Positions 14,651 through 16,991 of a stretch of DNA of 44,897 nucleotides are shown here, one piece after another. The notes under the pieces are model-generated. The model did no database searches. It saw nothing but the letters and a program-made list of their open reading frames with translations, and was not told where the DNA came from. Source of the DNA: Candidatus Borrarchaeota archaeon. GTDB lineage: Archaea; Asgardarchaeota; Sifarchaeia; Borrarchaeales; Borrarchaeaceae. The stretch lies in contig JAEOSO010000001.1 in assembly GCA_016840315.1 (NCBI GenBank), positions 1 through 44,897 of the forward strand, given 5' to 3'. Position numbers and translations under genes: made by a program. Each line of letters opens with the position of its first letter. Within the stretch, counting starts at the first letter, position 1.

Positions 14651-15368
14651 ATGAAGATCGCGATTGTAGGCATAGGAGGCGTGGGAGGATACTATGGAGG
14701 AAAACTGGCCAAAAGATATGCTACCACAGGTGAGCATGAAGTTTTATTCTTAGCCCGGGGTGAACATCTAACCGAAATCAAGAGAAATGGACTGTCGGTA
14801 ATAACCCACGAGGGCGATGTTACAGCGATACCCACGGTAGCGACAGATAATCCAAAAGACTTAGGATTATTAGATCTTGTTTTCTTCTGTGTAAAGACTT
14901 ACGATCTTGAAAATACAGCACGGCAGTTAATAGACAATATGCATGAGAACACTGTTGTGGTCACTCTACTAAATGGAGTCGATAATACAGATAGATTAAA
15001 ATCTATACTGTCAAAGGGCACCGTACTTAATGGAGGTGCGTACATTAACTCTTTTATTCAGACACCTGGTGTCATAAAACAAGTTGGTGGTTTCCGTCAA
15101 TTGATATTTGGTCCCGAAAACGGCACGCCAGAAAAATATCGGTATATCGAGGACCTTTTAAGGAATGCCGTCATAAAGGCTGAGCTGACTGCTGACATCT
15201 CAGTTCAGGTTTGGACAAAGTACATTTTTGTCGGTCCGCTGGGAACCATAACTTCACTATTGCAAAAGCCTGCTGGTGCAATAATTGAAGATGATAAAAG
15301 CAAGCAAATGTTGAAAGGACTTATGGAAGAACTTAAGTTAATAGCTAAAAAAAGAGGAATAATTTTAC
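14651..15368 (+). pseudogene. panE: 2-dehydropantoate 2-reductase, 5' portion, interrupted by a TnpB element
   Basis: Rossmann N-terminus MKIAIVGIGGVGGYYGGKLA. PanE-like sequence stops being PanE-like after ..AKKRGIIL, where GC-rich IS sequence begins. Confidence 0.75.
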
Positions 15369-15489
15369 TGCAAATGTGCAAAGAAAGCCCAGTCCTTCAG
15401 GGCGGGGATGAATTTGCACAAACTTTATATAGGATTCTGCCCTTAAATACTTAGTGATATGTTCCGAGAGTCGCATCGGAGTTATTTTT

Positions 15490-16770
15490 ATGCAGGTGAA
15501 GAAAGGAATCAGGTTGCAGATATATCCGAATAAAGAGCAGAGCATACTGCTCAATAAAACGCTCGGTTGCTGTCGATTCCTTTATAACAAGATGCTGGAA
15601 GAACATGTCAAGATTTATGCTCAATTAAAAGACGATAAGGACGCGCTCTACAGTCATCAATACAAGACTGCGAAGCAATACAAGCAGGAGTTCCCGTTTC
15701 TTAAAGAAGTGGACGCTAAGGCTCTGCAAACTGAGAACCGACACCTGTTTGCCGCCTACCAGCACTTTTTTGAGGGGCTTAAAACGGGCAGGGCGGTGGG
15801 CTTTCCCAAGTTTAAGTCAAAGAAACAATACCCGCAGACCTATACCACGTATAACATCAACAACAGCATACGGATCGACAACCAAAAACGGAAGATACGC
15901 ATTCCGAAGGTCGGTTGGATCAAGTACAGGGATAACCGCGCGATTACCGACCCGATCAAGCACATCACCCTCAGCAAGACGGCAACTCACAAATACTTCG
16001 TGGCGGTAACGGTGGTGTGTGAGATGGAAATACCGCCCAAGAAGACGGTCTTAAACCGCGAGGATATTGCGGGGTTCGACATGTCGGCGACACACTTTCT
16101 GATCGGCGAAAGAGTGCAGTACGAGAACCCGCGATTTTATAGGGAAGAAGAGAAACGCCTCAAGAAACAACACAGAGAATTATCGCGGAAAGAAAAGGGA
16201 TCAAATAATTGGGAAGCGGCACGGCTCAAACTGGCGAGTACCTATGAAAAAATTAACAACCGAAAGCGCGATTGGTTACACAAGACCACCCATGACTTGA
16301 GCGAGAGATACGATGCCGTTATCTTAGAAAACCTCAATATCAAGGGGATGCAGCAGTTCAACTCGGGTCTTAGTAAGTCCATCGCGCTGGACTTCTCTTG
16401 GTGTCAGTTTCGGACGTATTTGGACTACAAAGTGGACTGGAAGGGCAAGTATTTCGTCCTGATTGACCGTTTTTTCCCCTCCAGCAAACTGTGTTCGGTC
16501 TGCGGTCAGATAAACAATGACCTCACACTGAGCGATAAAGCCTGGACTTGTAAACATTGCAGCACTACACACCATCGAGATAAAAATGCCGTCGTCAATA
16601 TCAAAAGCGAAGGTGTCAGAATCCTACAAGAAGAAATCGGAATCGTGGTCTACCCACACCATGATACGTCTACCGTAGGGACTACGGGAAGTCACGCCTC
16701 TGGAGAGAATGTAAGACCCTATACCGATACCGGGCAGTTCTCGTTGAATGAGGAATCCACTTGCCTTTAG
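15490..16770 (+). CDS. tnpB: TnpB RNA-guided endonuclease (IS605 OrfB type), apparently intact
   Basis: N-terminal KGIRLQIYPNKEQ..LGCCRFLYN. RuvC motifs GFDMS, ILENLNIKGM and HRDKNAVVNI. Zinc finger CSVCG..CKHC. Confidence 0.85.
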   Translation: MQVKKGIRLQIYPNKEQSILLNKTLGCCRFLYNKMLEEHVKIYAQLKDDKDALYSHQYKTAKQYKQEFPFLKEVDAKALQTENRHLFAAYQHFFEGLKTGRAVGFPKFKSKKQYPQTYTTYNINNSIRIDNQKRKIRIPKVGWIKYRDNRAITDPIKHITLSKTATHKYFVAVTVVCEMEIPPKKTVLNREDIAGFDMSATHFLIGERVQYENPRFYREEEKRLKKQHRELSRKEKGSNNWEAARLKLASTYEKINNRKRDWLHKTTHDLSERYDAVILENLNIKGMQQFNSGLSKSIALDFSWCQFRTYLDYKVDWKGKYFVLIDRFFPSSKLCSVCGQINNDLTLSDKAWTCKHCSTTHHRDKNAVVNIKSEGVRILQEEIGIVVYPHHDTSTVGTTGSHASGENVRPYTDTGQFSLNEESTCL

Positions 16771-16785
16771 GCTGTGGTAGTTCAA
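16640..16785 (+). ncRNA. Predicted omega (right-end) RNA scaffold of the TnpB element; 5' limit approximate
   Basis: Overlaps the tnpB 3' end as in characterised TnpB systems. Terminal nested hairpin CCAC-ttGCCTttAGGCt-GTGG is followed by GTAGTTCAA. The guide would start at 16786. Confidence 0.45.
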
Positions 16786-16991
16786 CTGAGGATATCATTT
16801 CTTCGTCATTAGAGACGCTATCCCGCTTTCCTTATGATGCAACAACTTCAATGCAGAGGGATTTCGAAAGTGGAAGAAAAACAGAACTTGAGACCTTTAC
16901 CGGTTACATTGTAAAAAGTGGCAAGGAATTAGGAGTGGAAACACCATTATATCAGGAAGTCTACAATGAACTTCTCAAGAGACTTCCTTAA
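16786..16991 (+). pseudogene. panE: 2-dehydropantoate 2-reductase, 3' portion
   Basis: (P)EDIISSSLETLSRFPYDATTSMQRDFESGRKTELETFTGYIVKSGKELGVETP is a typical PanE C-terminal domain. Confidence 0.7.

Follow-up and report, generated by a model that had tools for sequence, protein, structure and literature searches.

The stretch of DNA analysed here (the window) comprises 44,897 nucleotides (nt), positions 1 to 44,897 of the forward strand of contig JAEOSO010000001.1, from the metagenome-assembled genome (MAG) of a Candidatus Borrarchaeota archaeon (GenBank assembly GCA_016840315.1). The host is an Asgard archaeon of the same genus as Candidatus Borrarchaeum weybense, whose MAG is referred to below as G002, and its own MAG amounts to 1.70 Mb in 181 contigs at 77% completeness. 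On the forward strand of the window, panE, a predicted ketopantoate reductase gene of the ApbA/PanE family, lies in two parts. The 5' part (14651-15368) contains codons 1-239 and the first base of a split codon 240 and matched Pfam ApbA (1.2e-32), and the 3' part (16786-16991), which completes codon 240 with two bases and continues through codons 241-307 to the stop codon, matched Pfam ApbA_C (1.2e-13). Between them, in the same orientation, is a whole tnpB-only element of the IS200/IS605 family (15369-16785; 1417 nt), whose boundaries were set from empty sites in relatives and from other copies. A first-pass annotation, made from the sequence alone, had proposed that this insertion was precise and that deleting 15369-16785 restores the panE frame. 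The insertion was confirmed, far beyond chance expectation, by the rejoined gene and by uninterrupted sites in six relatives.

The panE reading frame runs from the ATG at 14651 to the left junction and picks up again in another frame at 16788. The length of the insert is 1 mod 3, which places the two parts in different frames, as was first read. In the window the left junction (15368/15369) reads ..GGAATAATTTTAC/TGCAAATGTGC.., with TTA at 15365-15367 and C at 15368, and the right junction (16785/16786) reads ..GTGGTAGTTCAA/CTGAGGATATC.., the insert ending in TCAA at 16782-16785. Joining 14651-15368 to 16786-16991 gave an open reading frame (ORF) of 924 nt encoding 307 amino acids, not the 299 initially estimated, with the joint ..KKRGIIL-P-EDIISS.. 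and so the I-L-P-E-D-I-I that had been predicted across it. Alignment of the rejoined protein to PanE/ApbA homologs, the check that the first-pass annotation had suggested, yielded single tblastn high-scoring segment pairs that spanned the joint without a gap there, both in three same-genus genomes (75-77% identity over 290-308 amino acids) and in distant PanE homologs (28-37% identity). The 5' part was 75-78% identical to same-genus homologs, and the 3' part has a conserved TSMQRDFESGRKTE block. The Pfam ApbA_C profile was itself split, with positions 2-56 in the first part and 66-121 in the second, and the nine residues at the joint fill the nine missing profile positions exactly. An ApbA Rossmann domain and an ApbA_C domain in one chain are predicted for the rejoined gene only.

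The uninterrupted site was found in six relatives (four genomes and two metagenome contigs), where it reads ..TTTTAC|C.GA.GATATCATT.. with no gap, the bar marking the position of the insertion. In the four same-genus genomes the site is GGAATA(A/T)TTTTAC|C(G/T)(G/A)A(G/T)GATATCATT. Joining the left and right flanks of the insert reproduces the empty sites exactly, with no target-site duplication. The boundary of the insert is unambiguous, because a shift of one base either way breaks the match to the empty sites, and the right boundary was also set by four other copies of the element, which share the end ..GTGGTAGTTCAA and diverge beyond it. The two uninterrupted metagenome contigs were 84.5% (syntenic over 14 kb) and 91.5% identical at the nucleotide level. 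The metagenome scan used the empty-site pattern and may have left out records very near the window's genome; within that scope no empty allele from the same species was found. The public runs that hold this stretch are marine-sediment, cold-seep and subsurface metagenomes, and no RNA run is listed among them. In one marine-sediment run (X4), a single assembled contig joins 15368 to 16786, omitting exactly 1417 nt, and none of the X4 pieces listed crosses the filled junction. The contig hints directly, if weakly, that an empty allele occurs in nature.

The ends of the element were identified from the sequence and its DNA fold. The left end, which includes the region upstream of tnpB (15369-15489), begins with a 19-nt spacer (15369-15387) that terminates in the guide tetranucleotide AAAG (15384-15387), followed by the imperfect palindrome CCCAGTCC-TTCA-GGGCGGGG at 15388-15407. 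Farther along it contains a TATA-like TTTATATA at 15424-15431 and a GGAG at 15478-15481 upstream of the ATG, a putative promoter and ribosome-binding site judged by their position and their conservation among copies. The right-end core (16753-16785) consists of GAAT (16753-16756), the imperfect palindrome CCACTTGCC-TTTA-GGCTGTGG (16757-16777), TAGT and the cleavage site TCAA. The 34-nt pattern of the right end was unique in the window, with 0 chance matches expected. Both hairpins have a tetraloop and a mid-stem irregularity and are conserved among copies, and there are no terminal inverted repeats.

This anatomy closely follows published descriptions of IS608 (ISHp608) of Helicobacter pylori. 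In IS608, the target and left cleavage site is TTAC, 19 nt 5' of the hairpin foot (PMC3201880), the right cleavage site is TCAA, and the tetranucleotides 5' of the hairpins, AAAG on the left and GAAT on the right, read the cleavage sites (PMC5934647). The panE element likewise lies 3' of TTAC without a duplication and ends in TCAA, so the motifs that the first-pass annotation gave for IS608 match the published ones; it has AAAG and GAAT directly 5' of its subterminal imperfect palindromes, the same 19-nt left spacing, and a tnpB in the same orientation that extends almost to the right end. It differs from IS608 in having no tnpA, in residing in an Asgard archaeon and not in a bacterium, and in its seemingly extended target. 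The motif TTAC (15365-15368), belonging to the host gene and not to the element, stands as the core of the target, as first proposed, but the target, and hence the likely target-adjacent motif (TAM), is probably longer (TTTTAC, 15363-15368), because TTTTAC was present in five of five independent left flanks of family copies. Of the five TTAC sites in panE, only the one at which the element inserted lies within a TTTTAC.

The only ORF of the element is tnpB (15490-16770), a gene of the RNA-guided nuclease type, which encodes 426 amino acids and matched Pfam HTH_OrfB_IS605, OrfB_IS605 and Cas12f1-like_TNB. The RuvC residues D197 (16078-16080), E280 (16327-16329) and D364 (16579-16581) are present, and both CxxC pairs of the zinc ribbon, at residues 335 and 354, are intact. 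By conservation of these residues the protein is predicted to be catalytically intact, in agreement with the first reading. It matched the ISDra2 TnpB of Deinococcus radiodurans (PDB 8h1j and 8exa; also 8bf8) over residues 5-376 with an E-value of 1.7e-66 and with the catalytic motifs aligned, D191/E278/D361 of ISDra2 corresponding to D197/E280/D364 and the zinc ribbon being the same. The nearest TnpB proteins outside the genus were 37-39% identical and came from Clostridia, Halanaerobiales and Methanolobus.

In ISDra2, the last ~16 nt of the right-end element RNA derive from the DNA flanking the right end, and the scaffold of the RNA predicted here would similarly overlap the 3' end of tnpB and carry a flank-derived guide of ~16 nt (PMC8612924). 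The predicted scaffold of this omega RNA, with a provisional 5' limit, is at 16637-16785, and by the ISDra2 model the guide would be the 16 nt CTGAGGATATCATTTC at 16786-16801, the start of the panE 3' part. ISDra2 differs in having a tnpA and in its target and TAM, TTGAT as against TTAC or TTTTAC here. The last ~150 nt of the element are the most conserved block among seven copies, and identity at third codon positions was 0.87-0.96 in this 3' block versus 0.51-0.85 in the middle of the gene. RNAalifold predicted four stems comprising 38 pairs, with compensatory changes at four pairs. Conservation and pairing together fit an omega RNA, without amounting to proof.

A permissive Rfam scan gave sub-threshold matches that serve as leads only. 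RAGATH-18, a motif that forms part of an IS607 TnpB guide RNA (PMC11061315), matched 16697-16755 with 27.7 bits against a gathering score of 44.9. The IS607 family itself was rejected as an assignment: the element has no second ORF for a serine-recombinase TnpA, its ends follow the IS608 code, and the RAGATH-18 match is below threshold. The other sub-threshold matches were to SNORD105 and to HPnc0580, a Helicobacter pylori small RNA, the latter within 16697-16759 with 21.8 bits against a gathering score of 37. Since IS605 and IS608 both occur in H. pylori, HPnc0580 could be a right-end RNA in its own right; publications that mention it list it and draw no link to IS605 or IS608.

The element was found at eight places in the MAG, with 78-91% nucleotide identity. 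At least four copies have open tnpB frames, two of them cut by contig ends, and the open copies are 86-88% identical at the nucleotide level. Between copies, the ratio of nonsynonymous to synonymous divergence (dN/dS) was 0.14-0.22 and dS was 0.37-0.52, which indicates that the element family is old and under purifying selection. The copy in the same-genus genome G002 has two stop codons. In two copies in the window's own genome, L003:1359-1521 (contig C10) and L007:1695-1857 (contig C68), a second IS608-type left end lies ~163 nt upstream of the usual one. It differs from the usual left end and consists of TTTTAC, 19 nt and the hairpin CCTCACCGC-TTGA-GCGTGGGG. The L003 and L007 copies share 358 nt at 95.8% identity, and the L007 copy is a stump that ends ~190 nt into the element. 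The extra left end may be a nested or tandem one.

The element is classed as non-autonomous and tnpB-only because there is no tnpA inside it. It resembles the IS1341 group in having a lone tnpB ORF between IS200/IS605-type ends, in being multi-copy and in its predicted reliance on a TnpA in trans; no specific catalogued relative was found in the databases covered, among which ISfinder was not included. A Y1 TnpA is present in two same-genus genomes, within an IS605-type tnpA-tnpB element (L036:1330-3300 in G002 and L035 in G004) that encodes a TnpA of 142 amino acids and a TnpB of 427-435 amino acids. The right-end hairpin of this autonomous element, CCCCATCCTTCAGGGTGGGG followed by TAGTTCAC, matches the left-end hairpin of the panE element at 17 of 20 positions, and a related TnpA acting in trans is a plausible mobiliser of the panE element. 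The right end of the autonomous element finishes in TCAC, and its target would be TTTA. Its right end is followed by 10 nt (ATAGACTTGG) identical to those with which its left end begins, an arrangement like that of a right-left circle junction or of a tandem remnant.

Taken as a whole, the locus is very likely the result of the insertion of a non-autonomous tnpB-only IS200/IS605 member of the IS1341 group, with IS608-type ends, into an Asgard panE. In the proposed mechanism, single-strand 'peel and paste' would place the element 3' of TTTTAC, without duplication. Movement would need a Y1 TnpA supplied in trans, which would bind both subterminal hairpins, while pairing of AAAG with TTAC and of GAAT with TCAA would set the cut sites in cis. 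Guided by a right-end RNA of ~150 nt together with ~16 nt of flank, the intact TnpB would cleave the empty joint TTTTAC + CTGAGGATATCATTTC and thereby cause the element to be copied back by recombination.

Several observations weigh against this account. No Y1 TnpA (PF01797) was found in the 77%-complete MAG. The TnpB of the autonomous element in the same genus is 26% identical to that of the panE element, and the left guide tetranucleotide of the autonomous element points to TTTA as target. The foot of the right hairpin is 8 nt from the cut, versus ~10 nt in IS608. For the predicted omega RNA, there was no Rfam match at gathering score in the whole window, and a single-sequence fold of 16560-16801 was no better than shuffles (z = +0.28). 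Finally, the empty joint in X4, although exact and of the kind that the first-pass annotation had proposed to look for in read data, occurs in a single contig, which has a depth of 4.7 and a shorter side of only 30 letters.

The alternative that best survives is that the element is an immobile relic whose matching TnpA has been lost from the lineage, and whose copies are maintained through vertical inheritance or through TnpB-driven homing from allele to allele. The lack of a detected Y1 TnpA, set against 19 TnpB zinc-ribbon matches (PF07282) above the Pfam cut-off in the 1.7-Mb MAG, speaks for a relic, as do the age of the copies and the two stop codons in the G002 copy. However, the MAG is incomplete and repeats often fail to assemble; many of the 19 matches are at contig ends, which indicates that the assembly is probably broken up by TnpB elements. 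Both ends retain the whole cleavage code of IS608, the dN/dS values point to selection on TnpB, and the panE insertion is missing in every relative, including the one at 91.5% identity, while the empty allele seems to coexist. A relic is accordingly judged unlikely, and the insertion of an element that is mobilised in trans is preferred.

Under that preferred reading panE is very probably knocked out, because truncation after residue 239 would remove the conserved C-terminal substrate-binding block. A TTG at 16761, inside the right-end hairpin, opens a frame of 76 codons that runs into the panE 3' part (16761-16991), and translation of a C-terminal PanE fragment of its own from this frame is conceivable in principle. 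An intron-like element (an IStron or another self-splicing insert) that is removed from the panE transcript would instead leave the gene working. The element is oriented as panE is and its removal restores the frame exactly, as would be expected of such an insert, but no group I or group II intron or ribozyme was found in Rfam between 15300 and 16900, either at gathering score or at E-values up to 5. The distance from the left end to tnpB, 121 nt, is below the size of a group I intron, and the ends follow the DNA-level code of IS608. An intron is therefore highly improbable, and the IStron class, for which no group I intron ribozyme was detected in the same Rfam search, was rejected.

A chimeric join induced by repeats during assembly, which would have put this multi-copy element into panE in the MAG only, might be suspected because several copies are at contig ends and because contigs of the public runs reach just 22-30 nt across the right junction, but it is excluded in practice by the exactness of both junctions: a chimera would not yield two junctions that restore panE to the base, 3' of TTAC and ending in TCAA, and contigs of runs X1, X2 and X3, which come from two studies or more, extend 58-134 nt past the left junction with one mismatch (the X1 and X2 contigs are identical in size and possibly represent one data set filed twice).

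The age of the family and the age of this insertion are separate matters. The first-pass annotation took the high GC content of the element as a sign of recent arrival. The element is indeed rich in GC (46.6% versus 38.5% in the rest of the window), with GC at third codon positions (GC3) of 0.61 versus 0.35 for panE. However, this was rejected as evidence of recency, since every diverged copy, to dS 0.37-0.52, keeps a GC3 of 0.57-0.61; GC richness therefore says nothing about when this copy arrived. Better evidence for a recent insertion comes from the panE halves, which are undamaged, without a stop codon or frameshift, and have dN/dS of 0.15-0.20 relative to homologs, from the empty sites in close relatives and from the empty-allele contig. 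The absence of the insertion from every relative, with the empty allele seemingly coexisting, indicates that this copy moved recently. It is possible, though we hold this tentatively and consider it doubtful at present, that the panE site is polymorphic in natural Borrarchaeum-like populations, filled in X1-X3 and empty in X4, with the element moving now or being excised and re-homed.

One difference between the window and the public runs was also observed within the 5' part of panE. Position 15171 is T in the window (GTC, Val174 of PanE) and A in the contigs of all four public runs (GAC, Asp), and Asp174 is present in every same-genus homolog. The T is either a consensus error of the MAG or the first degenerative change in the disrupted gene.

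For annotation, these results mean that the panE of this MAG is one gene disrupted by a transposon, neither a pair of genes nor the product of a frameshift error. The element belongs to a transposon family that is already well known, is an ordinary example of it, and leaves current understanding unchanged. It does provide exact ends, together with a predicted TAM (TTTTAC) and guide, for an archaeal TnpB close to that of ISDra2, and it shows that the cleavage code of IS608, 19-nt spacing included, is kept unchanged in an Asgard archaeon. The many TnpB genes in a MAG with no detected TnpA fit the persistence of TnpB-only elements by trans-mobilisation and homing. If the panE site is in fact polymorphic, it would offer an in-situ system for the TnpB homing model in Asgard archaea, and would also yield a compact TnpB with a TTTTAC TAM.

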